Shown in pieces: positions 1 through 54,319 of a DNA stretch of 64,000 nt; position 1 is the first letter of the stretch, and each line of letters opens with the position of its first letter. Below the pieces are notes generated by a model. The model ran no database searches. It was not told the origin of the DNA and saw nothing but the letters and a program-made list of their open reading frames with translations. The stretch is taken from contig OZ210884.1 of assembly GCA_964658305.1 (NCBI GenBank), positions 2,666,001-2,730,000 on the forward strand, given 5' to 3'. The stretch is from Leptogorgia sarmentosa. Its lineage: Eukaryota. The position numbers were made by a program, and so were the translations under genes.

Positions 1-234
1 ATGCTCTATCTTTTTTCTGTAAGAGCTTTGTAATAATTTTTGGTACTTTTCTAGTAGCTAGCTGTACGGCGACTAAATTAGTAGTTCTTAAATAACTAAT
101 AACAGCTAGCAGTTCAAGATACTTTTTGAAGCAGAAATTGAATAGATTTTCTCCATTTTAAATATCCGTGCTTAAAATATATAACAGCAATACAATAATA
201 AACAACTTCTATTTTTTACCTTTATTTTTTTAAG

Positions 235-29751: not shown

Positions 29752-31348
29752 GTAAGTAGCTAATAAGTGACTGCATAGCACGCACATACCTATCAGCTAT
29801 GTTGAATGTAAAGAAAAACGGATATAACCGTTCTTAAAAATAATTATGGTGAACATAATAATGGACATAATATAACGACTTGTATCTCTATTTTGCGCAA
29901 TTTCCTGTTAGGCCAGGAAATATTTGTTTAAACTTTTTAAATTTCCAACTGTTAAATTAATATAAGCTTTCCATAAAACTATATGTCAGCCGAGAAACGA
30001 CCTTCTAAGAAACTTTAACAAAAATAAACAGGCTAACCCTGCATTTTCATGTGCAAAATTTAAATACACATGATAAAAATTTTACTGTTGGTATCGTTAC
30101 AGTGATTTCTGCCATTTGTCCGAATAAACATTTTTACTTCATCCCACCTACAGTATAGAGTTTATAATCGATTGCAACCTACGAACTGATTGCAAAACTC
30201 CTATCCTCGACGGACTCCCTCATTGTAATCGAAAACTGAAAAAAATAGCCAATCGCATGGCCCTCAAAACGAATTTACGCACCCGAAAGCAATAGAGAGT
30301 TTTAGGTCTACAACGCGGCCAGTTCGACCACGCGGTCTCAAATTTTAGCTCAAAAATGAGCGTTGGGCAATTTTATACTATGATATTAGATATTCGAAGC
30401 TTCTTGGAATAACATTACCCACAGTCATATAGTCCTGCTAAAGCGTTGCAATATTTGTTGTAATGTCGATATTAAGTAATAGCTCACAACTCTTAGATTG
30501 TAAACTGCATTCATGTTGCAAAAGACGTATAATTAACAATTATTGGGTGAGGTTTTTGTGATATGCGAAATTATCAAGATCGATGTAAGCGTTATAAACC
30601 ATGCTGAAAACAGGCTCATTTTGTACCTAATTAGGTAGCTAGATAACTCAGTTATCTGCTAGCAGATAACTGGATTTCCTGTGGGTTGCGTGATTGCGCG
30701 ATTTAACTGTATGCTCTTAGCCAATCAGATTGCTTTTACCATCTACAATGTATAATAATAATCCTTAGTTTGATTATTAGAACGACAAAGCCTCGTAAAA
30801 TACTCGTGAAACCAGAGGTTATTCATATAATTCTTTGTCCTTGTTGGCAAATTTCTTTGTTTCGAAAACGCGTCGTTGAGGCGGCCGCGTCGTAGATCAT
30901 AAACTCTCCAATATATTTTCGCATATGCATAGAATACCTCGTGAAACAAATACAATTTTTGAGCGTTAATATAAATTTCTCAAATTAAATAAAAATTCAA
31001 TTGCTTTAAAATTATTTTCAAAAGAAATTGGCAGCAAACAAATGAATCTAATTTTATACCCAAGACTCGGGCAACAGCTGAAATTTTCAATTGCCAGTCA
31101 TTTTTTAACTTAATTTTACGCATGCACTCAAATGTTTATCTATATAAACCAATTTCATATCTCGTTATAATTATAAGACAGAACAATAACAGTTGAAACA
31201 TACTCGGGGAATTCAAAAACCTAAATTAACCAGGCCAATTATTCACAAATATTATAATGGTAACAAAACGATTGTTGGCCTTAATGCATTTTAACGATAT
31301 AATAATGTTAATAATATCTATAATAATAAATTATTTTTTCCTCATAGA

Positions 31349-34300
31349 ATGACATCTAAACAATCGGTATCTTTGTTGGCATTCATATTTCTTGCTCCAC
31401 ACATCATTTGCAAGGTTGAAGGTAGTTATTCACAAATATATAATCGCATTAAAATTAAATAAATAAGAGCATGCCCACATATGTAGCAAAACGGAGGAGG
31501 AACACAAGAGATGTGGATAAACACAGTACTAACCGATAATCGGTTGAGGATTTTTTAAAGGTGATGTCCACTCCGTTCTGCGCATCGGTTCTGCTCATAA
31601 CAAATCGGGACCCGCAGATATAACATTGCAAAAATTTTGTAATGTTCCGAACTTTTTCTGAATCAAAACTCTGGTTTATATCCATTTATGACCATAGCAA
31701 ACCAAAACAGCGTTAGATATGCTGTTAGTATTATCATATTTTACAAATATAGCTGTTCAAAATGTCAACAAAGCATTTGTTTACATTATGAGTGGAGGGC
31801 ACCTTTAAGTGCAACATTCGTATGTTTAGAAAATGTAATAAAAAAATATGCCGTAACTCCTGGTCCGTAACCTAAATAGAGCTTTCTGATTGGTTCCCAA
31901 TACCGTAGGGCACGGCGTCCGCTGTTAACGGTCTTTAGTGATTCCAGTTAGTACGGTCTAGCGCTTTGAATACCAAAAAAATGAAGTCATGAAGTCCGCT
32001 GATCGTATTCAGCTTGGGTTCGATGAAAGATGTGCCAAAGTTCTACAGGCAGCGTCCTTTATGCTCGAGCCTTGTCGAATTCGATCTCCGAGCTTCGAGA
32101 TCTGAATTCTACTGCTTACAAGCTTTAATTTGATGTGTTAGGCGAATGTTTACACCAAATACTTTCCAAATTGCCATCGTCCGAATTTTGGTAATTATTA
32201 TATCGAATGCGATTCTGGCTATTGCCATTATGTTATCGAATGGGTAACTTTGGATTTAAAAAACTGAACATCGATTTAAACATTATCAATGTAAACAGTC
32301 TTAGAGAATACAGATAATAGATTGAATGGCAACATTGATTCTTAAAATACAGACTTTTAGTACAGTTTGAACAATTTGTGAACCTGACACGTGAATAAGA
32401 AACTTATAATCTAAGTTAGAATCCAAAATTTTGTTGGAAAACTTTAAAAAAGGTGTTGCCTTTTACAACGTTAAATTTTTATAGGTACCAGAAATGGCAC
32501 AAAGACGAGACAGGCTAATATAAACCCTATTAATTTGATAAAATATGTCATTTTCATTTCCAAATTTGAACGAAATAATAGCGCTAGGGAAAAATGTGAA
32601 CCTCAGGCGATTAAATTCAATATATTATCCGTATTCTCAAAGACTGGTTACATTGATAATGTTTAAATCGATTTTCCTTTTTTAAATCCAAAGTTACGCA
32701 TTTGATACATAATGGCAATAGCCAGAATCGCATTCGATATATTACCAAAATTCGGACGATGATAATTTGGAAAGTATTTCGTGTAAACATTCGACTAACA
32801 CATCAAATTAAAGCTTGTAAGAAATAGAATTCAGATCTCGAAGCTCGGAGATCACATTCAACAACGCTCGAGCATGTTTTAAGGCCAAAGGACGCTGCCT
32901 GTAGAGCTTTGACACATCTTTCTTCGAACCCTTGGTTATTTCAAAGCGTTAGACCGTACTAACTTGAATCACTGCTGACAGTTAACAGCGTTCGCCGGGG
33001 TTACGATTTCTGGCCATATGAAAAACTCACGAGATAATAAAAAGCGTAGTTTCGGCAGATAACATTGACCTCGGTCTGAATAATTCTTGAATTCATGCTC
33101 AGCCTCATCCAATAATTGTTTAATATACATGAAAAAATTTTAATAAATTATACTTGTCTCGCTTTGTTCGGCCGCTATTATACGAACCGAAGTTGTTTGC
33201 TTGTCCATCGAGCACTTAGCTGAACGAGGAGAAATCTCTGTCTCGTATTATAAAATGGTTGCCATCATCGACTGCTGTTAATATAACTTTTAAGCTGTCT
33301 GGTTCATATTCATCGCCCTTTCTTCCGCATAAAAACAATCGAGCAAGTTAATATATATTAACTCCTGTTGCGGAGCAACATTTTTTCATCAACGGGCAGC
33401 CATTTTTTCATCTTCGAATAATTTCATATTTTGTTATTGTTCGCCAGAAATGGCTTTATCTGATTGGCCAGCTTTGTAATCTCAGTCACAATACATATTG
33501 AGAAAGAAATAGAAATTTGCGCTGGATTTCTTTTTTTGGCACTGAATTTGCTTTTTAGCACTGTATTTCCTTAAAATTGCTCTCCTTAGAATCGAGAATT
33601 TTTTTTCATTTGACATTTTCATTTTTTTTCATTTTCATTTTTTTCATTTTTCCAATGACATTATATAGCATTCGTCCTTCGGAGTCCTACTCCAAGGCGT
33701 GCATTCGGACCCGTCATAAGGCTTGTATTCAATGAATTAGTCAATTATTCAAAAAAAAAATCACAAGTACATAATTACATTCGTGGATTAATCATGGATT
33801 GTTTACTTATTAGGCAGTCCTACTCCACCACCGGGAAATACGACATCAACAGCGCCTCCACAACCACCTACAACAACTGAAGGTTAGTGAAAGAATAAAA
33901 ATAACACCAAGTGAAAATGCATTCCTTAACGATTTAAGGACTTCCACAATGAAAATCTCTCTATAATAGTGAAGTGAGTTCTAGACTGTTTTACCATAAT
34001 TTAAAAGAAAAGCATCGTCGCTTTTTATTATGTACTTTCAAGCGTGTAGAAAGGTAATTAATATTTATGAGATAAAAATATTAAGAATTAGGTCAAGTCG
34101 ATATCATTGTCATACCTTCCAACCGATTTGACCTCGTAGCTCAGTTGGTAGCATTGCACTAGCAAACCAAAGGTCCAGGGTTCGGTTCCCACCGACGCCA
34201 GGCTAATTTTTCAGCCTGCCCGGTGTAGATATATAATCAGAGTAACATCACAGTAACACAGTGGCTGGGTCAATTGAGGCTGGTGGGGGTTACATCCCTG

Positions 34301-37300
34301 TGTTGGGGAGCTCTAGTCCCAATGTCGGGCAATTAAGTCAGTATGTCGATCGGCGAAAGCTGAGAAATTATAAGGGTAACAGAAATGCACAATCTTGTTA
34401 CGATGTAAATTCTCCCAGAAAGAGGTATATAGAAGACAGAGCTGCCGTTCCACCGAAATATAACCCATTTCTAACGCACTGTTAACGTATCATATTGCTC
34501 TGCGAAGGAGAACGTCTAGTGGACTGTAGACCCCCCTTCCCCACTGCCATGGATAACCAAATCCGGTCCTGATGCCTGTCTCGCAATCGTTACGATCGCT
34601 CCATATTATTCCATTTCGCCGCTCAAGAATTATTTGATGCATCGTTATTGTAGCAAAATATCCCAATGTATATGAGACCTCGAAAATGGCTTTTCCAACG
34701 GTGTAGAGATCTAGAGTATTTTCCACGTCGTTGGCTTAAACTATCTTAAAGTACTTCACCTTCTTATTTCGAAAGTTTTTTTCTTATTTTCGTTGCAAGT
34801 TGACTTTCAACGTTTCAACAGAAACTCTTAAAATGCAACATTTATGAAAACGAAGTGTGCAATGATTCAATGAATTATTCAATTATTCAAAAAATAAATC
34901 ACAAGTATATAATTATATTCGTGGATTAATCGAGGATTGTTTACTTAATAGGCAGTCCTACTACACCACCGGGAAATGCGACATCAACAGCGCCTCCACA
35001 ACCATCTACAACAACTGAAGGTTAGTGATCGAATAAAAATAATACAAGTGAAAACTAAGAAAAGTAGCATCTCCTTAACGATTTAAGGACTTCCACAATG
35101 AAAATTTGTCCAATAGTGAAAAGAGTTCAAGATTTTTTACCATCATTTAAAAAGAAAAAGCATGGTCGCTTTTTATAATGTACTTTCAAGCGTGTAGAAA
35201 GGTAATTTATGAGATAAAAATAAGAATTAGCTCAAGTCGGTACCAATGTCATACATTTCAACCGACTTAAGTTGGTAGAGCATTACACTAGTAAACCAAA
35301 GGTCGAGGGCTCGATTCCCACCGATTCCCTACGTTAAAAAACTGGAATTAATTGGAATAAACTCAATGCACGCATTATAGGTGTTCAATATCCGTTGTCG
35401 CTCGCTTCTCTTACCTAGAAAGTTCATGTTTAATTCACTTGTGTGTTTACCATTCGAGATATTCTTGTTTCGAGTGTTTCCGTTTTGGTAGAGAACCTGA
35501 CTGCCTTACGTATACTTTAAGTACTTCCCCTTCTTACTTCACTACCAGTTTTAATCAATCAATTTCGAAAGTTTTTTTTCTTACTTTCCTTGCCTGTGGA
35601 CAATCAAAGTGTCAACAGAAAATTTCAAATTGCAATATATTTGTAATGAAGTGTATAAAATAATTCAAGAATTTATTCAATTATTCAAAAAATAATCACA
35701 AGTAGATGTCGATTATATTGTTCGTACTTAATAGGCTGTTCTACTCCTCCATCGGAAAATGCTATATCAACAGCGGCACCACAACCGACTACAATAGCTG
35801 AAGGTAAGTCATCGAATAAAAATAACACAAAATGAAACTAGGAAAAAACATTTGAGGTATACAGGTACCGTGTCCTTAATGATTAAAGGACCTCAATACA
35901 GTGAAACTCTAAATAGTGGTTATAAATTCAGATCTTTCTCTGGTATTCTCAATGTGCAATGTTGCAAATGCTAGCATGGTAGAAATAAACTCTATCTATC
36001 ACAATGAGCCTGCGATCTTAAGCTTCGCAGGCAGATCCACATTGGATTGGAGTTCGCGCTGTCCAGTTAACAATATGAAATAGTAAAGGTTTTAGTTCTT
36101 GATCGGAGAGACACATTTGGCGTCTTGCCTACTGGATATGGAAAGTCGTTAATATACCAGCCTCTTTTCTTTGTGTTTAACGTTTACTTGGGTCAAGACA
36201 TATGTCTATAATTTATCATTCACAATTTGAGATATAAAATCTGTTAAAATTAAATGTTTACTTTCCATTCCGGGAAAACAACCAATCAGATTCACTTCTG
36301 ATGAAGATTATCCCAGAGCCTTCGATCCTACCTCCGAAGATCGCAGGATCAGAGTACGAGTTTGCAATAAATCCTTTAGAGAAACATACGTTTCACATAG
36401 CCAATTCATTCAAAATTAGTTACATTATTCATCCGAAATGCTCGAAACTTAAAATCCCATTACGCTATATTATATATGCACAAGCAGTCGATATAGGGCT
36501 ACTATTTTGAAGTTAAAGTTTGCAATATTATAGCTATGTATACCGCGTTTGAAAATACCGTGAGTAGGTTAAATTAGCAAGAGCTAATTCGTCATGGGTT
36601 AAAATTAAATTAGTATGTTGGAATAAAGCAATTTTACTTAGTTTGACAATACAAAGCTTAAGAATTTCCAGTAACCTTTCATAAACGTTGTAATTATATA
36701 CCGAAATATAAGAGAAAACAAACTCCGAAAATGAACATCTTGTAAACTCAAGATATATGAGCTGTTATAAAAACAAGACACAATATTCAAGGTAATATTT
36801 CGACTCTATTTCAAAGTCATTGTCAATAATACCATATATGATATACATCAAATATTACATTGAATATTGTGTCTTGTTTTTATAACAACTCATATCTTGA
36901 GTTTACAAGATGTTCATTTTCGGAGTTTGTTTTCTCTTATATTTCGCAAAATTGTCTGCTGGAAAAGGTTTTTGGACTAATATAAACCGAAATAATGCTA
37001 AAATTGACGACAATACTTTGGTTTTTATATCTTTTTTCATTTTTCAGGGGGAAAGGATGAAGAGTGCACTTGCCATCCCAAAATTGTATGTGGTGATGAT
37101 ATGAAGGTGTCTGTGAAAAGGAAAGAGCAGGAAAACCCGCTAAGGTTCAAGTGGATAAAATGCACTTTGAAAGAGTTGATAGCAGACAACGAATGTAAGC
37201 CTGATGATTGTTCGATTATTGATACAAAAATTATGCCGGTGAAAGTCAAATGTCCTGATAACGAACAACTGGAATTTGGTGATTACCATATCACCATAAA

Positions 37301-37325
37301 ATGTAGCCGGGTAGCGATACCATAG
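31349..37325 (+). CDS. Secreted protein A (185 aa): signal peptide, three Pro/Thr-rich micro-exons, cystine-knot-derived domain. Exons 31349-31421, 33814-33882, 34952-35020, 35735-35803, 37048-37325
   Basis: All junctions are GT-AG, phase 1, and the frame is open. MTSKQSVSLLAFIFLAPHIICKVE / GSPTPPPGNTTSTAPPQPPTTTE (three variants, 69 nt each) / GGKDEECTCHPKIVCGDD..KCTLKELIADNECKPDDCSIIDTKIMPVKVKCPDNEQLEFGDYHITIKCSRVAIP*. Paralog at 44151-50176. Confidence 0.82.
31920..32990. mobile_element. Fold-back element with approx. 370-390-bp imperfect inverted arms (approx. 31920-32312 / 32630-32990) in an intron of gene A
   Basis: AGTTAGTACGGTCTAGCGCTTTGAA pairs with TTCAAAGCGTTAGACCGTACTAACT; GATCTCCGAGCTTCGAGATCTGAATTCT pairs with AGAATTCAGATCTCGAAGCTCGGAGATC. 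Confidence 0.85.
34130..34230 (+). mobile_element. tRNA-derived SINE head; decayed copy at approx. 35262-35325
   Basis: A-box TAGCTCAGTTGG and B-box-like GGTTCGGTTCCC, followed by a non-tRNA body (CAGGCTAATTTTTCAGCCTG); no complete acceptor stem. Confidence 0.6.
36005..36350 (+). mobile_element. Transposon relic containing a RecQ-type helicase motif I fragment
   Basis: From 36071 it reads QYEIVKVLVLDRRDTFGVLPTGYGKSLIYQ (RecQ-family Walker A). It is bracketed by the imperfect inverted repeats CCTGCGATCTT / AAGATCGCAGG. Confidence 0.6.
36702..36946. repeat. Hairpin/MITE with approx. 95-bp inverted arms just upstream of the last exon of gene A
   Basis: CGAAATATAAGAGAAAACAAACTCCGAAAATGAACATCTTGTAAACTCAAG is the exact reverse complement of CTTGAGTTTACAAGATGTTCATTTTCGGAGTTTGTTTTCTCTTATATTTCG. 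Confidence 0.9.
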
Positions 37326-38586
37326 CCTGCATGACTTTAAAATATGTACATGTGTACCATTGTTGAGAGTGATTAACAAAAAAAACGAAGTTGTTTTACC
37401 TGGCATAAGTTTAGAAATAAAGTCATTTGTTGAAAAGAGAAATGTCTTAGAAATTGTCAAAACCACCCTCAATATTCTTTTCTCACTTTCTAAATGTTAA
37501 ATTACAGAATGCAGCATAGATTTATTTCTCGTCCATCTCAAACGTCCCAAATACATCATACTATACCATTGCCATCTCTTTCTCAATGCACATCATTTAG
37601 AATGATCTCGAGCCTCAGTAATGATCTTAGAACTGAGGACCGAAATCCTCGGTTTTCTAGGACCTTGACTTTTAACCCCACTGACCAATCGTGTCGAGAA
37701 TGTTTGCCTCCGTAAACTGTAGTCCTCGACAAGTCACAATACGTTTTCCAGTTTTATTTAATAATATAGAGTTTAAAATAATCACATTGCTCGTTCGCTG
37801 TCTCAGTCTCGCTAAGCCTCACACCTGTGCAAAAGTGTGCTCATTTTCACCAGTCTCCCTTAGTTATACCCATCCCTAAATGTTATATGATACCTCATTA
37901 GCTACGTAATTTAATTAAAGCAAATGTCTTATCTGTTCCGTCAGTTCCCAACAATCGATCGGTTACCTGCCTTGCATTGGTATAGAATTAATTACTGGTA
38001 CAGTACTTTACATTTTTACCAGTTTTTATTTAAAAAGCAAACGTTTGTAAGGGCGAATAGAACCTGGGGTTTGCTCCCTCGACATCGGGTACCTTTATAG
38101 GAGAGAAAAGACCTGACTCCTGCTCGAACTCAACGTGGCAAGTGAACCGCTGGGATTATTGTGTTTTATGTAGAATAGTTTTTTGAACGTAACGCAGGGA
38201 GAAAAAGTGAAATATCGAAAACAAGGATCAATGCAGTTAAAAATAGTAGCTAAAAACTTTTTTTTATACAACGGCAAAATTGAAGAATGTTAGAAAAAAA
38301 GTTGAACTTTACGTAAAGTTAAGTTCATTGCTCACGCTAACATCAAATTTAAAATTTCAGGACAATTTTGGAGAACATTATTAATCCAATTTTATGCGAT
38401 TATTGAATGTGGTCAAGAACTGTAGCATATGTCGCACTATTAAGGCCTTAACTTGTGTTGTCTTTCACCAGCGGGTGCGAAAATTAATAATTCTTCCAAT
38501 ATTTATTTGTATTTTATCAGACATAGGGCAAACCCTTCCACTGTAAACAGCACCTTCCTTTGAGGAAGCCATTTGTATATATTTCC

Positions 38587-39357
38587 GTGTCTGAAGCGTA
38601 TTTTAACAATGTTTATATCGTGAAACGAACGGGAAAATAAATAATTTCAATAAGTTTACCTTTTTCGTAGTAATGTTGAGTGGAAAAACGTCAATATTGA
38701 AGCAAATGCTTCAATATTGAAGGGGTTTTTCTCACTTCATCTTTCGAGACCTCGACAAAATATTTTCCAGTACGGACCGACCTAAATGGTAATTAAATAA
38801 CTTTTATTTTTTATGCTCGAAGCTATAATAAAATTGTGGGGAATTCTCTTGTATTTTGGCCTCTCACGCTTTCCCTTGCACCTGCGACACTAGATAGTCA
38901 CTCACTGCTCATCAGTTTTATGTGATTTTAATTTAATATCAACAATTTTGTGTTAAAATCGCCACAAAGGGCTGCATAACCATATAAAAAGTATTAAACC
39001 GTTTTAAGAACGTTCTCGCCACGTTTTTTCCTGCCTTCAACCTGCGAACAGGTGGCCTGACGCAACAGCCTTCGAACAGGCCGCGTAAGGTTTTCTACAA
39101 AACTCATAAGAAATATTCCAGTGTTGCGAACTATAGATTTTGAGATCAATTGGGTTTGTTTACTTTGCTACTCTAACGCAAGTATGGCTGCTAAACAGGC
39201 AAGACGAACTGAGAAAAAACCCTTCAATATTGATTCATTTGCTTCAATATTGACGTTTTTCCACTCAACATTACTACGAAAAAGGTAAACTTGTTAAAAT
39301 TATTTATTTTCCCGTTCGTTTCAAGATACAAACATGCTTAAAATGCGCTTTAGACAC
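38587..39357. mobile_element. Element with approx. 145-bp inverted arms
   Basis: TTTACCTTTTTCGTAGTAATGTTGAGTGGAAAAACGTCAATATTGAAGCAAATG pairs with CATTTGCTTCAATATTGACGTTTTTCCACTCAACATTACTACGAAAAAGGTAAA. Confidence 0.8.
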
Positions 39358-42300
39358 TGAAATATTTCGCCGAGAATGTTTTGTTTTATTCATACTGATG
39401 AGACTTTGTTGATGAGTTTTTGTCGCAGTAAGTACCCCCTAAAATACCCCTTAGCATAATAAATGAACTTTCATTTGCTTCGGCTATTACGTAGCGCGTA
39501 ATATTTAGGATTCGCTATTTAGGATTCCGAACCGCGGTCAAATATCGTAAAATTCCGCCCGCTACTGAAGCCAATCAGATTGCAGAAAACGCTCGGATTC
39601 CGCCCGCTGCTGATTTGCAAAAAAATAGAAAACTGTCTTTGTTGTAGATTTAATGTGCATGATCATTTCAATGGAATTTACATGCCTATATTGCTTACTT
39701 TTACTCAATCTAAGGTTGGCAATGACGAAACGCCTCGCCTAGTGGGTTGGATATTCTCTTGTGTTTAGTTGGGGTTTTTAATCCCGCCTGGCGAGACGAA
39801 ATTCCACAAGAGAGTTACTTATTGACGTTTTTTTCGCTAAACGTCTCACACCAAAATGGGAGAAAATCACGTGGTACGTTTCCCGCCGTTGTTTTCGTCT
39901 TGTTCCTTTACGTTTTGAATGCGTGGATACACCTCTAGAGGTAATTAATCTGATTACCTCAAGATATATATTATGCACTAAATAATGAGTCAATGCACGT
40001 TCTAGGGAAAATTAATGGCATGAAGGAATAGTTCCTGTAAAAAATGTGATAGCACCCAGTATAGAGCATTCGCATTGCTCAGTATTATGAGATGTTCAAA
40101 GCGATCGCAGCCTGATTTTAAGTCATCGTTTTCGAAAACTTCCGTTTTAGCCTGGAGAGCGTTTTTGAAAACCTCCGCCTTCCGTTGCCAAAAATGCCGT
40201 TTACATGTGAACGCTACGCCTAAACGGAGAAAAAATATCCACGCATTCTCGAAAATATCCGGATACGTGTGGACGGGGCCTTAAAGTTTTTGCAATTGTT
40301 TTCCTGATGGGGCAGTAAAAATATGCGTATTATTTCCGGAGGGTAATACGGGAAATCCTGTCTCGCCAACAGCCAAACAGATTGCGCTATTCGCCAAACA
40401 AATGCCTACCATATGATACAAAATGAAATGATAGATAGCAAGGCTGAATAATAATACGAGCTTAATACAAATAAAATGCCACGTAGTCATCTAGCTACTG
40501 TAACTAATCCCTATAGACATTCCGTTCACACTGGGGCTTTAAACAATGATATCGATATTAATATTTCGAATAACATTATTAATATCGCAATAACCAACAG
40601 CAATTAATTGCGGAACACAAAGAAGTATGAAAGCCTCATGATTGTTTCAACGCAAATAGCCTTCATTCCGTGCAAAAATAAATTCTTCATTATACATTTT
40701 CGAAAATGCTTGGGAAAATTTGAGACGGAATAGTGTGAATAAAAATGCAAAAATCGCTCAAAAACGATGATTGTCTAAACGTCATCGTCATCCATGCTTG
40801 TATAATTACGATAATTGAGCCAACGCGGAGGCGTGCACGGGAACTATAGATCTTGTCGTGAGAGTCAATGCCCAGCAGTAATCTCTTTAGCAACCTAAAA
40901 AACAAACAATAATTAATAACCGAACTCAGAACAACCGATATAGTAATTATAAATATCTAATGCAGCCCCCAAATTTAAGAAAATTCCGATCATTTTACAA
41001 TAATTCAAGTGTTTCAAGCTAATTATCAATCGTACAAATGATGCCCTTCAATAATGGAGATGACAAAATTTCGTTACCTCATAGCGCTTGCAATACGATG
41101 CATCCGTTCCCTTTAATTAATATTTTTTTACAAAGCCCCCCTCGCCAATAATATTCTATGTTAAACATAATTACACTAATTCTATTAATTTTCTTAAATG
41201 ATATTATTCTATGGCTTTTTAAAAATTCTCTATTCTGATTGGTTGACAAGCGGTTGGTAAAAATCGAAATCTTGACCGTGGTCCGTATTTTCCGTATCTG
41301 GACCTGTGTCGCGGATGTCGTTTATCTTGGGGGAAACTTCGCTTCGCCAACAGAAAAGAATTTTGCTTTTCAATTTTCCAATTTTCTGACTAAATCATTT
41401 TAGATTGAGGATGTATGTCTACCGTATACTGTTACCCAGAGAAACTGATGATAGCCGATGTTAATTCGCGCGAAAAGAATATGCTCAAATACTCAATTCA
41501 GCCATGTAATAAACAGTTTATTGACCTCGCTTGTTCGGTCTGTATTGTGAAATATCAGACCTCAATCTTTTGCATTGACCTCGCTCCTTCGTCGCTTGGT
41601 CCATACTAAAAAAACCTCGGTCTGATATTATATAGTACAGACCTCACGCTCGGTCAATAACTCTTTATTATATACTTATGTAAATCTCAAGCCTGTCCAT
41701 AAGCAGTTGGTGTCATTTCACGTGCCGCAAATTTTCAAAATATGACTGTAGGTATAGGCGTATAGCCTAGCTGATGTTTATAATTATTTATTTTATATTT
41801 TGAAGTACTTTAAATTTTTGCCAGCGGTTTCATAAATGATCAGAATTTACTTTTATTTTGCAAAAAACTATGCAATCAAAATAATGGTTGATGAAAGGAC
41901 AGTGAAAGAATCTTTCATTGATAATTATAATAGGTGTCGCAATAACAAACAGCAATTAATTGCGGAACTTTGCGCTATAAATATGACAGAAAGCAATGTG
42001 AAAGCGTTAGGATCGTACAAAAATCCTTCATACCGTGCAAAAATAAATTTCGAAAATGCTTGGGAACATTTGAGAAGGAATAGTGTCAATAAAATGCGAA
42101 AATCGCTCAAAAACGACCATGCATATGCTTGTGGATCATTGAGCCATCGCGGAGGCGTTCAAGGGAACTATGGATCTTGTCGTGAGAGCCAGTGCCCAAC
42201 AGTAATCTCTTTAGCAACCTAAAAAACAAACAATTAAACACGGAACTCTGAACAACCGATATAGTAATTATAAATATCTAACGCAGCCCCCTGAATTTCG

Positions 42301-42994
42301 AAAATTACGAGGATTTTATATTAATTGAAGTGTTTTAAGCTAATTATTAATAGCACAAATAATGTCTTTGTTCAATAAACGTTGTAGCAACAAATTATAA
42401 TCTCCCAGTCGAACCCAACATTGACCTTACATATCATTAACGTAGCGCCACGGATACTTTGGCTAATTCTCGAGTTCATTCGTCCAAAATTAATAGACTT
42501 ATTTGTATACCCTACGCTCCTTTCTCACCAGAAGCACGATATGTGGCTTAAGAGCAAAACTTTTTTTTTTAGGCGTGTGATTGAACACAAATACACAATA
42601 AGCACTGCTCATTAGCTATGATGATTGAGCTATGGCTGGGGCGTACCAGAGAAAATAATGAGATCGTGTGGGTTAACGCACGAGAAGAAACTCTCTGGCA
42701 ACCAGAAAAACAAAATAAACACTAGCTCTCGACAACCGAGAGAAAAATGTATCGAATCCACCCCCGAAGTTTCACAAGTACAGGATGTTTACAATAATTG
42801 AAATGTTTTTTTCAAGTAAATTATCACATATTACAAATAGTGTCTTTGTATGCAAAAAGTTGAAGCAACAAAATCTTTAAGTTTCTAGCTGCTATGAAAA
42901 GGAACTATACACAGCTTGACTACCTATTATGCCCGCGCGTCAATTATTAAATAACCATCTGCAAGAACCTTTTAGTTCTTTCAATTCGCCACTG

Positions 42995-43107
42995 TATAAA
43001 AGCAGCACATCACAACCACTGCAATACATTCAACTCAAAAGACTAAAGAGATCAGTGGAAGAAGCGAAGAAATCGTCATTTGAAAGCAGGAGAAACCGAC
43101 CATCCAT
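42995..43107 (+). promoter_or_regulatory. TATA box and putative non-coding first exon of secreted gene B
   Basis: Paralogous to 29640-29751; TATAAAAG and the CCAT|GTAAGT donor are conserved. Confidence 0.65.
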
Positions 43108-44150
43108 GTAAGTAATAAATAAATTGTCTATATAGCACGCACGTATAAGCTATAGTAAATGTACAAAAACAGATCTATAACCATACATGAAATATTTATA
43201 GTGAACATATTAATAGACATAATATTTTTATAACTGGCTTCTATCTCTATTTTGCGCAACTACTGATTGTAGCTATTACTGCTAGATCTGTAATTATTTG
43301 TTTAAACTTTTCAAAGTTCGAACAGTCAAATTGATGTTTCTATAAAAATATACAGTATATCAGACAAGAAACGATCTTCTATAGAAAGTTTATCAAAAAT
43401 AAGGACGCTAAACCTGCATTTTCCTGTTCAAAATTTAAATATAGTTGTTATAGTTACAATGATTTCTTTCATTTGTTAACAAAAAAAACTTTTTACTTGA
43501 TCCGACCTAGAGTTCATAATCTAGTTCAACTTACCAACTGATTGCAAAACTGCTATCCTGGAGGGACCCGATCCTTGTAATCGAAAATTATAGAAAATAT
43601 GGCAAATCACAAATGCCATGTAGCTATGGCCCGGTTCAAAACGAATATACGCACCCAAAAGGAATAATTTCCCGCACATGCCTAGAAAATACCGCATGAA
43701 ACAACGTAGCCTAAGAATTACAAAATATCTATATTCCACCTAAGTTAACGTTAATATATAAAAGTTTATCGAAATACAATTTTTAACTTTGAATTGCCTT
43801 AAAAGTTAATTGATTTAAATTTGTTTTCAAAAGAACTTAGTAGCAAGAACATAAATATATAAATATTTAAATTTAAGAAAATTTCACGTCACAGTGAGAC
43901 TCGGGGAATTACCAAAACTTTCAAATTTCCTTAATAATTTTACGCAGTCCCATGTTTACCTATATAAACCAACTTCATATCAGATCCTGTTATGAGAATA
44001 ATAGCTAAGGCAGAACAATAGTACTTGAAATAGGCTATCCTAACTTAACCAGGCCCACATAAATTAGAAATGGTAGCAGAACGACAGTTGGCCTTAATGC
44101 ATTAACGATTTATGATTACAATATTTTTAATAGTATTTTTTCCGTATAGA

Positions 44151-47100
44151 ATGACTTCTAAACAATTGGTATCTTTGTTGGCATTCTTATTTCTTGCTCC
44201 ACAAATCATTTGGAAGGTTGAAGGTAGTTATTCAAAAATTTATATTATCGCATTAAAATTAACAAAAAATTCTGATAGCATATTCTAGCTATGTAGCAAA
44301 ACGGAGGAAGAACACGAGAGATGTAAATATTCATAGCTACCAACCGATAAATGCTTTTTCAGTGTTTTTTTTTATGTGTGTAACATTCGTATAGTTAGAA
44401 AATACAATAAAAAAACAGTCATGTATCATCTGCAAGAAAATAAATAAATACGTAGCTAACGTTCAAAATTTGAATTAATTAGAGGATAAACTCAATGCGG
44501 AAATTTAGGTATAGCTGTTAAATATACCCGTTGTCGGTCGCTTCTCTTACCTGCTTGGATCATTTTTAATTCACTTGTGTTTTTACGTGTCAAGATTTTG
44601 ATACTTGGGTTGTTTTAGTCTTGTTAGAGGACCTGATGACCGTCTGTAGGCGTATACTTTATGTAAGCCTTCCAACAGAAACTTTCAAATTGCAATAGTT
44701 TTTAAACAATTAGGTGTAAAATTACTCAAGTAATTATTCAATTATTCAAAAAATAGTCACAAGTAGTTAATTATATTCTTGGATTAATCGTGGATTGTTT
44801 ACTTAATAGGCTGTCCTACTACACCGTCGGGAAATACGACATCAACAGCGCCACCACAACCGCGTACAACAACTGACGAAGGTAAGCGCGATTGGATAAA
44901 AAAAACCAAGTGAAAACTAAGAAAAAAACTTTCTGGTACCATCTCCTTAACGATTTAAGGATTCCACAGTGAAACTCTCTGTAATAGTGAGATTCAGATC
45001 GTTCTTTGGTTGCAAGTGCTAGCAATGAATTTACCAGAGACGCTAAACCCTTTAGAGAAATATACGTTTAACAAAGTCACTACATTCAACACTATTATAG
45101 TCAATTATTCAATTAAAAAACTGGAAACTCATTATGCTATTACGCCATATATGCATTAGTAGTCGATATTTGGTAGCTATATAATATTACTTTGAAGGTT
45201 AAAGTTTACAATATCATTATACCAGTTTTCAAAAGACCGAGAATAAGTACATATTACGAGCAATAATTCGTAAAATTCGTTCGCTGATTTTATTCTTAAT
45301 AGGACCCACTACTTCACCAACAGGAAATCAAACATTAACCGCAAAACCAACGACAACACCATCGCATAAAACAACTGAAGGTAGGTAACCAAATAGGAAC
45401 AAGGTCGATTGAACAACGCGTTTAAAAACTTTATAATACAACTGTCCTTTGCCTGCAAGTACTACTAAAGTTTGAAATGTTGCAAATTCTCCATCCCTAA
45501 CTTAGCTATATGGGCTGCATAAAAAAAACTTACACAACTTTTGTATCTTAGCTAATGGCCCTTACAGATTTATTGCTGACATTTTCATAATGGCTTATGA
45601 AAATGTATGGCTTATAAATTCAAATTAAGCCTTTAGCTTCTTTCCAAATTATTGTAAAAATAAGACTTCATACGAATCGGTAAAAAAATGGCATTCAACG
45701 CCGCATTTTTCGAAAGGCGAAAGAGGATGGAATGAAAAGAATAGACGGTAGAAAAGTTATTTTTTTAACTAGCTTCTGTCCGGCCTTCCTGGCTAGAGCT
45801 TGACAATTGCATAATCACATATCCAACACAATTTTGTGGACCTGTGTCATTTCCAATTTATTTGCAACTTATTTAATATCGAATTATTCACCTCAATCCT
45901 TTGTAACAACGATGCTTCTATACTTTGTAAAAAAGGTTTTATAGACACATTGTAAGGTAGATAGAAATATATTCTGATATTTGTCTAATATCAACAGGCT
46001 CCGATAACGAGGATGAATGGGAGATTTCTTTCGTTGAACAAGGTACGTGCTTGATCCAAAGCGAATTTTTTATTATCATTATATAGAATGGTTATTATAA
46101 TCATGTTAAAATCGATTGGAAATTCCAGGAATTTACAATTCTTCCAAAGGAAGTAAAGCGCACACATTTTCATGCAGCCAATTAGATTCAGATAAGGAAC
46201 CAAAATAGCCAATCAGCTTTTAGCGAGGATTGGACAAAAACGCAGACATGAAAATAAATAATAATGTTTATAAACATGTTTTTGTTTATACACTTGATTA
46301 TTTCAAACAAAATTTGGTGACAGGAAACAAAAAAGGGAAATACTGAATTAACCATTCAGCATTTCTAATTACTAATTCACAAAATTCTGCTGCTCTCTAC
46401 TACGATTTGACAAAGTTCATGTGGCAATTACTGTTATACAACAGTTGCATCTTTCAAAAGCAAGCAGGTGGATGTGGGTCTTTTGCAAACCAAAATGACT
46501 TCGGTTTTAAAATTGTTTATGTTTCCAAAATGAATATAATAAAATGGTAATTACGCTTCGTTTCGTGTTATTTTGGTCGAAAATCACACTTTTGATCAGA
46601 CACTCCATTCTCGCTTCGAAGACGCACATTTTTTTCCAACTCGGCTTTGCATGAATTGAGACCATTGAACTATATAAAACTGGAAGGCTACTTCCGGCCG
46701 GAAACTTGAAGCCAAAATATGCAAAATTGGCGCCAGTCTTCTCACGCAATGTAAACACGGCCACAACAAATCATTCTGTGTTTTTCGGAAAAAACCTGGA
46801 AAAACCTTGCAAAAAATAATTTTAAAAGGTTGGAATCATTCATATTTAAAATAAATTTGATGAAGATTTTGTCCTCTTAATAATGGCCAGTTTTTGTACC
46901 AGATTTTGTATGGTAACGTCTGATAACACTAGCGCTTTTTGTAGAAAAAACCGATCAGCACTGATAAGCATGGTGTTGAGGTTTGCTATAAAGCTGGGTT
47001 AAGCCGTGATTTTTGGTTAATTTTTTATATTTTTCAAACATCGTTTACCCACAGGCTATTTCCATTGATAGACAGTTTTCGAATCATTATGTCAAGCATT

Positions 47101-50100
47101 TGAGATCCGTTTTATTCCAGGCGCAATCGTTTTCCGCGCGTTTACCTTACAGAAATTCATTTGATCGGCATAAAATTGAAATGTTCTGTATTCATAGCAC
47201 AAGAAATGGCTTTGAAACAGTAAAAAAACAGCAAATTCATTTCTCTATCGCATCGCAAGTTCCTACGTTCTCTTTCGACAACATGTTGTTCACTTGTTCG
47301 CTACTTTCAACCACGCGAGAATGTCACGCAGCTGAACTCGCGTGAAGTTATCTCCAGACACGCGTGCCTCCATGCAAAATTTTTAATTTATTTCCCGTTA
47401 ATATTAAGGTAGCCTTCCATATATTGTTCAATGATTGAGACCAAATTGCACTGCACTCAGTATATACCGACATATCTGTCCGTTTCAGCATGATCGTACA
47501 ACATGCTGAACTGGGTGTCTTTTAGTGCACTGGGATTTAGGAATTGACCATTATACAATGAAGACTTGTTGACAAATATTGAAATTTTTCTTCCAGGAGC
47601 AGAAAATATTACATGTACACCAACACAATCTACGTCAGGAAAAACTTCACCTTCACCAAAATCACCACCAGCTATACCAAAACCATTTAAAAAACCAAAA
47701 GGTACGAGCTCGAATGAAAAATAGGAACATTAGGCATGCGTAATAATCACTTAGCTACTGACTGAGATTGAAAAATATCAAACTGAGGTCTTGCTGTATT
47801 AACCGTGCGATAGGGAGGTTACTACAGCTAGACCGATGTTTGATGTTTTCCCGTACAGAACGAACAGTCGAAGTCAGTAGTTTATTATATTTTATTTTAT
47901 GGCTTTACGAAGCTCTCTACTGATTGGTTGACAAGCAGTCCGTAAAAACCCAATTCCGGACCGTTGTCCGTATTTTCTGTATCTCGACCGGTGTCCCAGA
48001 TGTCGTTTATCTGGAGGGAAATTTCGCTTTACAAATAGAAAAGATTTTCGCTTCTTCATTTTCCAATTTAATATTTACAGATAATAACAATTTCAAATAT
48101 CCAAATTGTTTTTATGGAAGATGTATGTCTACTGTACTATTATCCAGCGAAACTGATGATAGCTGATCTACTCAGGGCGAAAGGCATATTAATGCTCTAA
48201 GACTCAACTCAGCCATGTAATAAACGGATTATTGACCTCGCTTGCTCGCTCTCTACTGTTATATAATAAATATCAGACCTCTTTTTTTTTCATTGACCTC
48301 GCTACCTCCCCCGCTCGGTCCATACTAAAAAACCTCGGTCTGAAATTTCACAGTACAGACTGCACGCTCGGTCAATAAACTTTATTATTATATGGCTTTT
48401 CAAAATTCTCTATTCTGATTGGTCGACAAGCGGTCCGTAAAAACCCATATCCGGACCGTGGTCCGTATTTTCCGTACCTGGACCGGTGTCCGGGATGTCG
48501 TTTATCTGGCGGGAAATTTCGCTTCGCAAACAGAAACGATTTTTCCTTTTAAATTTTCCAATTTAAAATTTACAGATGAAAATTTCAAACAACCAAATTG
48601 TTTCAGATTGAGCATGTATATCTACCATATACTGTTACCCAGTGAAACTGATGATAGCCGATTTGATTCGCGCGAAAAGCACATGCTCAAATTCTCAATT
48701 CAGCCATATTTATTGACCTCGCTTGTTCGGTCTGTACTGTAAAACATCAGACCTCAGTTTTTTGCATTTACCTCGCTCCTTCGTCGCTCGGTCCATACTA
48801 AAAACCTCGGTCTGATATTTCACAGTATAGACCTCACGCTCGGTCAATAACCCTTTATTATTATATGGCTTTTCAAAATTCTCTATTCTGATTGGTCGAA
48901 AAGCGGTCCGTAAAAACCCATATCCGGACCGTGGTCCGTATTTTCCGTATCTGGACCGGTGTCCCGGATGTCGTTTATCTGGCGGGAAATTTCGCTTCGC
49001 AAACAGAACAGATTTTTGCTTTTTAATTTTCCAATTTAAGATAAAAATTTCGAACAACCAAATTGTTTTAAATTGAGCATGTATGTCTACCGTATACTGT
49101 TACCTAGTGAAACTGATGATAGCCGATTAAATTCGGGCGAAAAGCATATGCTAAAATACTCAATTCAGCCATATAATAAACAGTTTATTGACCTCGCTTG
49201 TTCGGTCTGTACTGTGAAATATCAGACCTCAGTTTTTTGCATTGACCTCGCTCCTTCGTCGCTCGGTCCATACTAAAAAACCTCGGTCTGATATTTCACA
49301 GTACAGACCGAACAAGCGAGGTCAATAACCCTTTAATATGGCATATGTGCGTTTTGAAATGAGCTTAGGCGATATACAGGAATAAACCAAATATTATCAT
49401 ACTGGGGCCGGTTGTATAAATCTCTTAACTACCCGTTTCGCAATTAAAATGCGGGTTTCTGATTGGTCAATTTTTATCATTTATAGACCCGGAGCGAGGG
49501 GGATTCGGCGTAATATTTCCCGAAGTGATGATATTTTCCTAGGGCTCTGCCCCGAGGAAAATATCATCACTGAGGGAAATATCGCCGAATCCCCCGAGCG
49601 GAGGGTCTATAAATGATATATTATACCGAACGAAACATTTTTGCATAATTGTTTTAAAGAAGTCTATTTATTTCTTCATTCGAGTCTTGCTCGCCCGCCA
49701 TTTTGCATAGATATGCTAAGCGCGTGTTGCCCACGCGTCACGCGTGAGCGTGGGATACTATAATATTCCACGGCGGATTTGCCGTGGGATATTATAGTAT
49801 CCCACGCTGGATTGCGAAATCAGGAATTTGAGTGAAATACCGTAAAAAATCACACTATCACGTGGTACAAATGCTGTTTTTTCATTGGACAATTTGAATT
49901 TGAGGTATAATATTAATTTTTATCAACCTCTTGCATTTTCCAGGTGCCGGTATAGATTGCACTTGCCATCCAGTACTTGGGGTTTTTAAAATAACCAATC
50001 GAAAGAAAGGATTTACATGCACGTCAAAGTTTGTCTATGCAAACAACGAATGTAAACCTAATCCACCCTGTGTTCCTATTAACCCAAAGCAGATCAATGT

Positions 50101-50176
50101 TCCAATGATATGTCCGAATCCACATCCAAATGTAGTGGTAAATGGCGAAGTGGTCATAAAGTGTGGTATAAAGTAA
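44151..50176 (+). CDS. Secreted protein B (186 aa), paralog of A. Exons 44151-44223, 44810-44881, 45303-45380, 47597-47701, 49944-50176
   Basis: GT-AG, all phase 1, frame open. MTSKQLVSLLAFLFLAPQIIWKVE / GCPTTPSGNTTSTAPPQPRTTTDE / GPTTSPTGNQTLTAKPTTTPSHKTTE / GAENITCTPTQSTSGKTSPSPKSPPAIPKPFKKPK / GAGIDCTCHPVLGVFKITNRKKGFTCTSKFVYANNECKPNPPCVPINPKQINVPMICPNPHPNVVVNGEVVIKCGIK*. Confidence 0.82.
47895..49335. mobile_element. Three head-to-tail copies (approx. 470-490 bp) of a non-autonomous element; solo copy at approx. 41205-41670, related hairpin at approx. 61630-61815
   Basis: The unit begins TATGGCTTTT..AAATTCTCTATTCTGATTGGT and ends with the internally palindromic TTATTGACCTCGCTTGTTCGGTCTGTACTGT..ACAGTACAGACC..GGTCAATAAC; it starts at approx. 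47900, 48392 and 48865. Confidence 0.85.
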
Positions 50177-53100
50177 AATCTGTTTTTTTTTTGTAAGGTA
50201 TTATATCTCGGATCTTTTTTTTCTTTTATTTGTTCGAAATAAATTGCGAATAGGCTAAAAGGCGTTCTAGACAATCGATTTTTGTATTCTTAATTCTTTT
50301 CAATAAATACTGATATAGTTTCAATCATTATACGTATTTTGTACCTGTCTTGTCTGATGTCAACTTGACTTCTAAGATTGATTCGAAATTGATGGTTTGT
50401 AACGTGTGCTAGAGCACAATAGAACGTATCGATTTTGGCAAACTTACCTTGGATTTTTCGGCGGCACATTTTCAAAACGCAATTCTGATACCAATTTCCA
50501 TCGTAAAAGGGAACCCCGTTTTGTTATTCTTTTGAGCCGTTTTATCTTCGACTGATCCGGAGTTGTGCAAACGTAGTTTAAAATACTACTCGCCGCTAGG
50601 TTGCTCGTTTAAACTTGGAAAAAAACTTGTCATGTGATTAAAAGGAAATTTTCTCCATTTTATTGATAATAGAAATGTTTATGAAGATTCCAGCAAAGTT
50701 ACTTGATAGTGTTAGGGTTTACATAATGTGATTTACACACAATTTATCAAAATATAAAAACCTGACTGTGGTCAACAGAATGATATATCCTTTCCGTGCA
50801 TGATTACATAATTATACTCATATATAGTACACAAAAAATAAAAGTCAATTCAGAAATTGAGCAAGTCGTGATACAGATCTACGTTACAGTGTAGCAATAC
50901 AGTAGAAATCGGTACAGTACAATACAAAGCACTACAATACAATACAATACAGCGGCAAATTGGAGAGGGGGGCTTTCTTTTCATCTGTTTTTGCATATTT
51001 AAAGTATAGATTTTGATTCGAAATATCTAAATTTCAGCATTAAATCTCTTTCCTTTATAAAGGAAATAACTCAGGTAAAGAAAAAATGCCATAATTACGG
51101 CAAAAATTACCACAAATTTCGGACATTTTTGTCTTCAATTTTTGAAGATATGAACTGCACAAGTCAATAATGTTGATGTGAAACCTATTAAAGTTTACAT
51201 GCCAATGCCTATGCGTCTTGTTTGATTTCGCCAATTCCAATTTTACTTTGCATGTTTATGACCTGTGTAAAGCCATACAATTCTTTATGCGGACGATAGA
51301 CTTTAAGGTTAACTTTTATAATGGCTTTTACGCCACCATCAAAGTTTGAACTTCTGACACACTGTCAAATTGTTCACTATAAAAATTACCGTCCTTCGTT
51401 AACAATTTGCCAAAAGCACCCCCTCTTCCCACCCGTTTGGCTTCTAGGACAACCCTACGAAATACAATACGATTACTCTATTTGTATCACGACTTGAATT
51501 ACATCAAATGACTTGCAAACAGTTTCTAGTTTTCTGCCATGTTTCCGTTGCCAAACGCCATCATTTTGTCAGAGGGATATTGCATGGGGATCACCTCAAG
51601 GGATTTTGTGGAATTTTTTGCGCGACGTTTTCTTAGCAGAAATACGACGGTTGCGGTAAGCAAAACAACAATGAGCCCGGCACACACCAGTATGGCAATC
51701 ATGATTGTATTTGGAGTGGATTCAGCTTCATCATCTACAAACGAAATGAAACATTTGCATGTACATCTTTTCTTGAAAGGTCGAATTGGGTAGAATTCAA
51801 TTGTATCGTTTATGCCGAGTGGGTATATGGAGGTTTTGCGGCTTTTTCATGGTATATTGATTACTTTTTGATGTTTTTTCCCACTATCTGTGCCGTGACG
51901 CCGAAAAAGACGTTGTTCATAATTATATCTTTATCTCGAAATATTGAATATGAAAATTAGCTAAATCCAAAAGTGAATTGAATTCTCCTCAAATTAAAAT
52001 TTTAGCTGATAAAGGTAACGGCGAATTTAACAAGAGAGTTTCGTGCCTTACGATCCGACTCTCAGCTAATCTTTCTGTGCAAAGACTCTCTATCTATTTA
52101 TAATGATGGAGTGTTTTTGTTTTTCGGGTCTGCAAGAAATTTTACACGAAAGTTGGAACTTGAAACGGTGCATTCATGATACAATATAGCTGCAATCGAT
52201 ATTTTGAAAACATATTTTAAAAAAGAAAATTTAAATAAACTACAATACCGGAAGATTTTCGTTTTTTTAGATTATCTTAGATAATTTCGTTGTAATTTTG
52301 TTCTAAATTTAAAACTTAAACTGTTTCATGTTGATAAGTCTAGCCTTATTTTGATAACAAAAACCAAACAAATGAACAATTTCAGATTCCGCTGGTCAAT
52401 TGAACCGTAATGTTAGCTTGGACGTCGGAATTAAGATTCAACACAAGGAAATAGCATATCCAGCAATGTCAGCGCAAATCACCAAAAAGTTCCAAAAGTT
52501 ATATAAATTGACGAAAAAAGATGCCTCATATAAAAGACGCCTCATTGTCTCTAACAAAATGCCACAGACGTTTTTATGACTGCTATACTAATGTCCCCCT
52601 ACTATCCCTTCATGCACTCTTTGCGATATTGATTAAAAGATGGCTAATTAATGGATCGTTAATATTTAACAATTAGACAACGAGGCCGAGTTGTCTATGA
52701 GCCAATAGTGAGTTTTCGCGAAAACGCGAGTTTTCTGCAGTAGCCAATTGTTTTCCTTTGCTTTTTCGCGAACCGTGGTCTATCACAGAATAGACGACGG
52801 CTGAGTAGCCAATGAGAATGTAGCATTTGTAATAGACGATGGTTGGGTGTATACTAAAAAGAAATAGCCAAACCGACAAACCTTGATCTTTGTTACTTTC
52901 CTCTTTAATTTTTTCTCGATACATGATGGGACCAATAGAGAGTTGGTAACTGCGTTCCGTAGCATCTGACGCATCACGACGTTTTCTGTTGGAACAAGTT
53001 GTACTTCGGGCACAAACAGAATCCTGTGTATTGATGTTACAAAGTCGCAGATCACAGTGGATGTAAACGAACGTGTGATTGGCGACGAATCTGAAAACTT

Positions 53101-54147: not shown

Positions 54148-54319
54148 CAGAGGCCGCGGAAGATCGATAATTGGGGGGGGGGGGGGGGGGGGGGTGCACA
54201 TATTCATATATTCGTGATGTGCATTACTGATTTCCTTTGAAATCAATTGTTTTCAAGGTCTTTGAACACGAATATATGAATATGTGCCCTCCCCAATTAT
54301 CGATCTTCCGCGGCCCCTG
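54148..54319. mobile_element. hAT-like MITE
   Basis: TIRs CAGAGGCCGCGGAAGATCGATAATTGGGG / CCCCAATTATCGATCTTCCGCGGCCCCTG; 8-bp flanking repeat GTCTAGTC / CTCTAGTC (7/8 match). Confidence 0.8.

Follow-up and report, generated by a model that had tools for sequence, protein, structure and literature searches.

Candidate ring-less cystine-knot heads encoded by two tandem stalk-protein genes near a DAN-type exon

Two neighbouring genes on the forward strand of a 64,000-nt stretch of contig OZ210884.1 (hereafter the window, with positions counted from its first nucleotide) appear to encode secreted proteins whose C-terminal domain resembles a cystine knot lacking one of its disulfides. Gene A (exons spanning 31349–37325) and gene B (44151–50176) are of the same design. 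The reading that we favour, at a probability of roughly 60%, is that they form a tandem pair of paralogues, each with a last exon that is a diverged homologue of a DAN/CTCK-type cystine-knot exon in the same window (exon K, 62746–63053, reverse strand) but lacks the third and sixth knot cysteines (Cys III and VI) and nearly all of loop 2. The predicted products would carry two-finger, ring-less heads, likely binding or dimerising, on a Thr/Pro-rich stalk. That A and B also represent a lineage-restricted family of stalk proteins with the first natural DAN/CTCK-type domain to have shed both the III–VI disulfide and loop 2 is a more tentative proposal, whose chances we put a little below even.

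The reference for the comparison, exon K, encodes a complete eight-Cys DAN-type cystine-knot domain with both the CxGxC and the CxC motif, entered through a phase-1 acceptor and closed by a stop codon. It scored 27.5 bits against Pfam DAN (cut-off 22) and 20.3 bits against Pfam Cys_knot (cut-off 24), and it matched lutropin beta weakly; no exons upstream of it were found within the window. The gaps between successive cysteines are 1, 5, 23, 10, 4, 13 and 16 residues in A, 1, 17, 10, 5, 13 and 16 in B, and 20, 10, 3, 15, 13, 16 and 1 in K, with Cx10C, Cx13C and Cx16C common to all three exons and identical in order. The six-frame translation of the window contained the composite pattern C-x10-C-(3..25)-C-x13-C-x16-C three times, in A, B and K, and the same pattern occurred in none of 60 simulated windows (Markov-1). 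Furthermore, all three exons enter two bases into the codon behind an AG, that is, in phase 1. Both the identical spacing and the shared phase had been claimed in a preliminary description of the window, and our gap counts and phase assignments agree with it. At the place of the CxGxC of K, A and B both read NECKP, and neither has a cysteine at position +2 past its last Cys; the motif CTCHP is likewise found in both.

Similarity between B and K extends beyond the cysteines. BLASTP aligned finger 2 of B with K at E = 2e-5 (13 of 35 residues identical), and when B was compared with the whole window by tblastn, K was the sole match apart from B itself and A (E = 7e-5, with the next best at E = 0.89). 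Shuffling the finger-2 segment of B with its cysteines held fixed reached the observed score once in 20,000 trials (p ~5e-5). A matches B at E = 3e-9 and not K directly; its relation to K is therefore transitive, through B. Two relatives came from outside the window, both metagenome 'hypothetical proteins', each a single-member entry encoded on a short contig: P0001 (51 residues, 78% identical to finger 2 of B) and P0002 (103 residues, 45% identical to B, E = 4e-15). P0002 in turn matched finger 2 of K at E = 1e-4, with 13 of 39 residues identical. Significant similarity to a bona fide DAN member, K, was thus obtained via B, via P0002 and via the profile of the four family members, and not with A alone. 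As far as sequence comparison goes, the A/B domain is supported as a diverged homologue of exon K. Word-based homologue searches with the B domain and with K returned no homologues.

In the growth-factor knot, Cys I pairs with IV, II with V and III with VI, two of these bridges forming a ring that the third penetrates (described in the available part of PMC3328748; the III–VI pairing also in that of PMC3843708), and the six knot cysteines have been called invariant (PMC4079206, available in part). K has the second Cys of CxGxC (III) and that of CxC (VI). The latter is absent from all four members, A, B, P0001 and P0002, and the former from the three that cover the region (A, B and P0002), leaving the family without the six knot cysteines of DAN and other eight-membered-ring domains. 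Loop 2, the 'wrist' or 'heel', is reduced as well: 19 residues separate Cys II from Cys IV in K, compared with 8 in P0002, 5 in B and 4 in A. The alignment with K therefore upholds what had been described earlier, namely that CxGxC has become CKP in A and B, that the heel segment is gone, that the terminal CxC is without its second Cys, and that exactly the III/VI pair (paired according to PMC3843708 and PMC3328748) is missing together with most of loop 2. Because this loss is common to both genes and to two outside relatives, it would predate the split between A and B.

Homology with DAN proteins would make the first Cys of 'CTC' Cys I, paired with Cys IV, the cysteine past the short loop; the Cys of 'NEC' would be Cys II, paired with the last cysteine (V); and the two mid-finger cysteines would staple finger 1 to finger 2. 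In DAN structures, this remaining mid-finger pair is the finger-to-finger link. With III–VI gone, there would be no closed eight-membered ring for I–IV to thread, and the domain would be topologically unknotted if its connectivity follows this scheme. The 'new Cys' reported earlier in CTCHP is indeed an extra cysteine of A and B, and its location is revised here: P0002 reads CTSHP where A and B carry CTCHP, which makes the first of the 'CTC' pair the conserved N-terminal Cys and the second the possible addition. P0002 has six cysteines in all, with gaps of 10, 13 and 15 residues where A, B and K have 10, 13 and 16. Its C-x-G-x-H at the CxGxC place and its loop of 8 residues give it the look of an intermediate, less reduced state. 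Its residues 59–63 read C-R-G-D-H, retaining the vestigial Gly of the knot motif and happening to spell an RGD tripeptide.

The stalk exons were located by scanning for open, Ser/Thr/Pro-rich segments with phase 1 at both ends, flanked by a pyrimidine tract, an AG and a GT. Exon 1 of gene A (31349–31421, + strand, as are all exons of A and B) contains the start codon and a predicted signal peptide over 24 codons plus one base, followed by a GT donor. Three stalk cassettes of 69 nt and phase 1-1 come next, at 33814–33882 (Thr/Pro-rich, with an N-x-T sequon and confirmed AG and GT), 34952–35020 and 35735–35803 (with one Cys), and the last exon (37048–37325) encodes the putatively un-knotted, eight-Cys cystine-knot-like domain and the stop codon, with AATAAA at 37416. 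In gene B, exon 1 (44151–44223) with its start codon and predicted signal peptide is followed by cassettes of 72 nt (44810–44881, one Cys) and 78 nt (45303–45380), both of phase 1-1, by a Ser/Thr/Pro/Lys-rich linker as exon 4 (47597–47701; 105 nt, phase 1-1, one Cys and one N-I-T sequon), and by the last exon (49944–50176), which encodes a seven-Cys domain of the same putatively un-knotted kind and the stop codon, with AATAAA at 50238. The start of this exon had been given as 49943 and is corrected to 49944 (AG at 49942–49943). Joined, the five exons of A remain open over 558 nt (185 codons) and those of B over 561 nt (186 codons); every internal junction is AG/GT in phase 1, and the AATAAA lies 91 nt (A) or 62 nt (B) past the stop.

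Residues 7–21 of exon 1 of A have a mean Kyte–Doolittle hydropathy of 2.35, and on the strength of such hydrophobic N-termini A and B are both predicted to be secreted. The stalk measures 69 residues in A and 85 in B, with 38% Ser+Thr and 26% (A) or 20% (B) Pro, and most cassettes contain an N-x-T sequon. It is probably both O- and N-glycosylated, O-glycosylation being judged from composition. The scan and the composition agree on a Thr/Ser/Pro-rich stalk, with more stalk exons than the preliminary description implied, a number of three or four per gene being too low. Stalk cassettes can be aligned with one another together with their flanking sequence. The only other Cys-rich exon candidate in the two loci is a non-conserved 11-Cys frame at 35361–35660, in an intron of A. 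One base ahead of the start codon, both genes have a pyrimidine tract and an AG (31346–31348 in A and 44148–44150 in B, + strand), as would fit a non-coding exon further upstream or an acceptor for trans-splicing.

The two genes have diverged unevenly. Their similarity is a mosaic (31111–36569 against 43935–45248) in which the promoter and the region from exon 1 through the cassettes are 72–93% identical in nucleotides (93% in exon 1, 72–87% otherwise). The last exons share 54% of their nucleotides and 35% of their amino acids, and no alignment is left in the intron and 3′ flank around them. These exons nevertheless keep an open frame, all shared cysteines, the spacing and two motif islands (CTCHP and NNECKP), and the derived Cys pattern is also kept in P0001 and P0002. 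Retention of frame, cysteines and motifs while the flanks diverged is what would be expected of an old duplicate under purifying selection. In the 5′ halves, homogenisation or a further duplication seems to have taken place long after the domain exons were duplicated; the high identity of these halves suggests recent gene conversion or a mosaic duplication. The notion that the domain exon evolved faster than neutral was dropped, as the adjoining intron and 3′ flank are equally unalignable.

Several results weigh against our reading, and many of them would also fit a different one, in which the A/B domain is an unrelated small Cys-rich beta domain that came to resemble DAN by chance or by convergence of its spacing. 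No match to any cystine-knot family was found with profiles in Pfam, among PDB sequences or in a large protein library. Specifically, Pfam DAN and Cys_knot matched none of the four members at E up to 10, as had been anticipated earlier for standard CTCK/DAN profiles; the family profile retrieved no cystine-knot chain from the PDB sequences, only aspartoacylase (E = 0.088, taken as chance); and among 1.84 billion representative proteins the A+B profile found P0001 and P0002 only, with no annotated or DAN protein at E ≤ 0.001. A search of the Atlas by language-model features with B gave a best score of 0.80, taken as chance, and the hhalign comparison of the four-member profile with K, at E = 5.5e-5, came with a low probability of 66%. 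The residue matches to K claimed earlier stand for finger 2 of B, whereas the likeness of its finger 1 (GFTC/GFDC) is not significant by itself (p 0.14 in shuffles), nor is that of A to K (BLASTP E = 0.72; shuffles p 0.025 and 0.20). Past the presumed signal cleavage site, each full model has nine cysteines, so that at least one must be free, inter-chain or bonded from stalk to head, and at least one pairing departs from the simple DAN scheme. Lastly, the splicing together of the exons of A, and of those of B, is itself predicted from the genomic sequence.

Other searches yielded leads or chance matches. Pfam DUF5760 for A (E = 0.011) and Lipase_2 for B (E = 0.11) were below the cut-off and taken as chance, and Pfam IL17 gave no row for any of the four members. 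The language-model features of P0002 were nearest a 'CTCK domain' cluster (0.87), with a DAN cluster at 0.80, both to be treated as leads only. A scan of metagenome loci with the family alignment produced 66 pattern matches and confirmed none; as P0001 and P0002 both fit the pattern, their contigs are evidently absent from that collection.

The predicted fold points to the cystine knot, with reservations that add to those above. AlphaFold2 models of A and B were built on an alignment of only four rows; the B model is all-beta with a mean predicted local distance difference test score (pLDDT) of 69.9, which is modest, and the A model shows two long hairpins at a low pLDDT of 51.1. For B, no Foldseek match reached E ≤ 0.001, and over both models the E-values were 0.13 or worse. 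The top three rows for B were sclerostin (E = 0.13–0.30), followed by alpha2/beta5, VEGF-B, PDGF-B, IL-17A and a heel-deleted TGF-beta2 monomer, and the list for A consisted mostly of neurotrophins, VWF CTCK, sclerostin, NBL1, Grem2 and IL-17. A second, Foldseek-independent search of the B model against 48,161 representative chains placed sclerostin at the top (Z 5.4, root-mean-square deviation 4.1, 67 residues aligned), with gremlin-1 at Z 4.8, VWF CTCK at 4.5 and Norrin at 4.2. Judged by title, ranks 1–11 all belong to the cystine-knot growth-factor superfamily; at rank 12 stands a chain of 98 residues from the RET/GFRa3/artemin complex, and a clearly unrelated chain first appears at rank 13 (Z 3.1). 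When the 347 best chains of Foldseek were re-ranked, PRDC, Grem2 and NBL1 scored Z 4.6–4.8 and VWF CK 5.0, and all 50 entries listed were from the cystine-knot superfamily; IL-17A stood low in the structural lists (Z ~3). According to the tool's own note, a Z below ~8 can reflect a common arrangement, and the best value of 5.4 lies below it; AlphaFold may also have recognised mere Cys spacing. The fold comparison proposed earlier thus finds DAN, CTCK and Norrin fingers to be the nearest folds, at modest scores, and we regard the structural ranking as consistent support, short of proof. No three-finger (Ly6/uPAR) chain was among the structural rows listed, which is weak evidence against that fold.

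An unrelated domain would have to account for two independent members, B and P0002, matching the same segment of K, for residues other than Cys that match beyond what spacing gives, for three identical gaps in the same order and a shared exon phase, for the presence of K in the same window, 12.6 kb away, and for the exclusively cystine-knot composition of ranks 1–11. In view of these points, we consider it decidedly improbable.

Two further explanations accept the relation to cystine knots. A and B might not be working genes, being either decaying cystine-knot duplicates that have lost an essential Cys or wrongly joined exons. The available part of one study reports that sclerostin C142R, in which knot Cys VI is lost, is disease-causing and poorly secreted (PMC3843708); besides this precedent, the exon joins themselves are predictions and the family is nearly absent from the databases, its distribution so far being very narrow. 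Decay is hard to reconcile, however, with two open models that have AG/GT junctions throughout and a poly(A) signal 62–91 nt past the stop, with domain exons that kept frame, cysteines and motif islands while their flanks diverged beyond alignment, or with a derived Cys pattern that recurs in proteins as distant from B as P0001 (78%) and P0002 (45%). Moreover, both partners of the missing disulfide are gone, so that no unpaired ring Cys is left behind. We rate loss of function or misjoining as distinctly unlikely.

Alternatively, the domains could be true cystine-knot derivatives in what are simply small mucins, with the head serving only to form covalent tail-to-tail dimers, as the CTCK domain does in VWF and gel-forming mucins. 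A layout of signal peptide, Pro/Thr/Ser-rich cassettes and C-terminal knot-like domain would suit this role, VWF CK and CTCK stand high among the structural matches (Z 5.0 and 4.5), and P0002 has CTCK as its nearest feature cluster. Yet the models contain no VWD, C8 or TIL part and extend to just 185–186 codons, the stalk is just 69–85 residues long, and Pfam gives K, the nearest relative, a better score for DAN than for Cys_knot. The odd number of cysteines, nine in both models, might be taken to favour covalent dimers and was dropped as proof of them: Grem1 and Grem2 have odd counts and yet form non-disulfide dimers, as stated in the available part of PMC7473711. A small-mucin role seems unlikely to us.

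In the favoured reading, that of tandem paralogues with ring-less DAN/CTCK-type heads, the DAN family (sclerostin, SOSTDC1, gremlin-1/2 and NBL1; PF03045) offers the closest comparison: it provides the best structural matches of the B model and consists of secreted, two-finger proteins, as A and B are predicted to be. The Cx10C, Cx13C and Cx16C that A and B share with K place Cys II, IV and V and the finger-stapling pair. Sclerostin has the same three Cys gaps (10, 13 and 16). A and B differ from the DAN family in being without III and VI, in a loop 2 cut to 4–8 residues, in the extra Cys of 'CTC', in the N-terminal Thr/Pro stalk of phase-1 cassettes and in the missing Pfam DAN match. Lacking three DAN features, namely a full set of knot cysteines (six), a match to the profile and loop 2, the A/B family is, by its predicted sequence, a variant of the DAN type and not a member. 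The CTCK domains of VWF and of gel-forming mucins, taken together with Norrin, resemble it in their C-terminal position behind a Ser/Thr/Pro-rich region and match the B model structurally at Z 4.2–5.0; the A/B family differs in having no VWD/C8/TIL assemblies, ~185 residues instead of thousands, no ring disulfide and no Pfam Cys_knot match.

Cystine-knot folds that lack a disulfide have precedents, natural and engineered. Chordate IL-17 has lost one knot Cys pair (Cys to Ser) and keeps two knot disulfides (available part of PMC4517768), and is in this respect a natural cystine-knot fold minus one Cys pair. It is, however, a separate family to which we found no sequence relation, and IL-17, an obligate dimeric cytokine, has retained its long loops. 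Sclerostin has been engineered both without the third knot disulfide (C84A/C142R) and without its loop (deltaLoop); these proteins can be produced, and their binding to LRP6 is weaker or absent (available part of PMC3843708). Disulfide mutants of VEGF-A keep their structure, as the accessible text of PMC3328748 states, and three of these mutant structures (PDB 1mkg, 1mjv and 1mkk) were listed among the matches of the B model in the re-ranking of 347 chains. These constructs, which remain structured or active, imply that a knot-deficient design is feasible. They are laboratory products with one change each, III–VI removal and loop 2 deletion in sclerostin both having been made by hand, whereas in A and B both changes occur together in nature and have been retained over a long period of divergence. 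The idea of a knot-deficient domain is thus less unprecedented than the preliminary description implied. A literature search on incomplete, degenerate or partial cystine knots, judged from its listing and the openings of abstracts, showed no DAN-type family without III–VI.

The window is AT-rich (GC content 0.33–0.40) and its genes are split by introns with GT-AG junctions. Taken with a ZP-domain gene, a rhodopsin-type receptor and a DAN-type exon, this makes it most likely animal DNA. The ZP-domain gene (51529–55260, − strand) lies between B and K; it has ZP-N and ZP-C exons (51.9 and 49.4 bits), a basic R-K-R-R site past ZP-C and a transmembrane-like exon. The receptor is an intronless open reading frame (ORF) of 293 codons at 15305–16183 (− strand) with a match to the rhodopsin family 7tm_1 (35.2 bits). 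Two further intronless ORFs, closely similar to each other and ~290 codons long, are found at 22371–23243 and 59452–60321 (both + strand) and form a duplicated pair flanking the A/B locus. Both begin with a hydrophobic stretch at the N-terminus, neither matches Pfam, and the exact sequence of the first is absent from the protein collection. A single-exon ORF of 173 codons at 4572–5090 (+ strand) matches Pfam Phage_lysozyme with 35.4 bits (cut-off 22.3) and is possibly a horizontally acquired phage-type lysozyme; such an acquisition has been reported for bivalves (PMC5303276, available in part). A high-copy interspersed repeat occupies 41200–41600 and 47900–49300 (+/−), in the region between A and B and in the last intron of B. 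Its summed contig depth, measured over three runs of DNA contigs from one sample, is ~125,000, compared with ~250 in unique parts, and several copies yield similar spurious ORFs. The contigs of these runs extend over introns and contain no spliced joints. Rfam had no match in the window.

The picture that we propose is of secreted proteins in which a short, probably O- and N-glycosylated stalk would hold a C-terminal two-finger head of ~75–90 residues. The head would derive from a DAN/CTCK-type knot through loss of III–VI and loop 2, and the genes may go back to a cystine-knot exon that was duplicated locally and shuffled in phase 1. In sclerostin, loop 2 carries the NXI motif that binds LRP5/6 (available part of PMC3843708). 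As this loop has no counterpart in A and B, any binding would have to use the fingers, which in the DAN proteins that antagonise BMP provide both the ligand-binding surface and that for non-covalent beta-strand dimers (available part of PMC7473711). Our best guess is that the fingers mediate a protein–protein interaction at the end of a glycosylated stalk, the head either associating with itself, as a small mucin-like cross-linker, or capturing a secreted ligand.

For now, the practical weight of the finding is limited. The layout of stalk and head, kept in a long-lived tandem pair, suggests an extracellular role, which could be in mucus at the surface, in the matrix or in ligand trapping. If the more tentative proposal, of a family that has shed both III–VI and loop 2, is true, the eight-membered-ring knot would be dispensable for a two-finger scaffold in nature, and A and B would represent a new, minimal, 'finger-only' module for extracellular binding to which current DAN/CTCK profiles are blind. 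The six knot cysteines are the basis of the family profiles; should the module prove to be naturally maintained, profile surveys would be missing cystine-knot derivatives in animal genomes with poor annotation, the finger scaffold would be sustainable on three disulfides alone, and the ~75-residue head would offer a compact natural template for finger-only binders.

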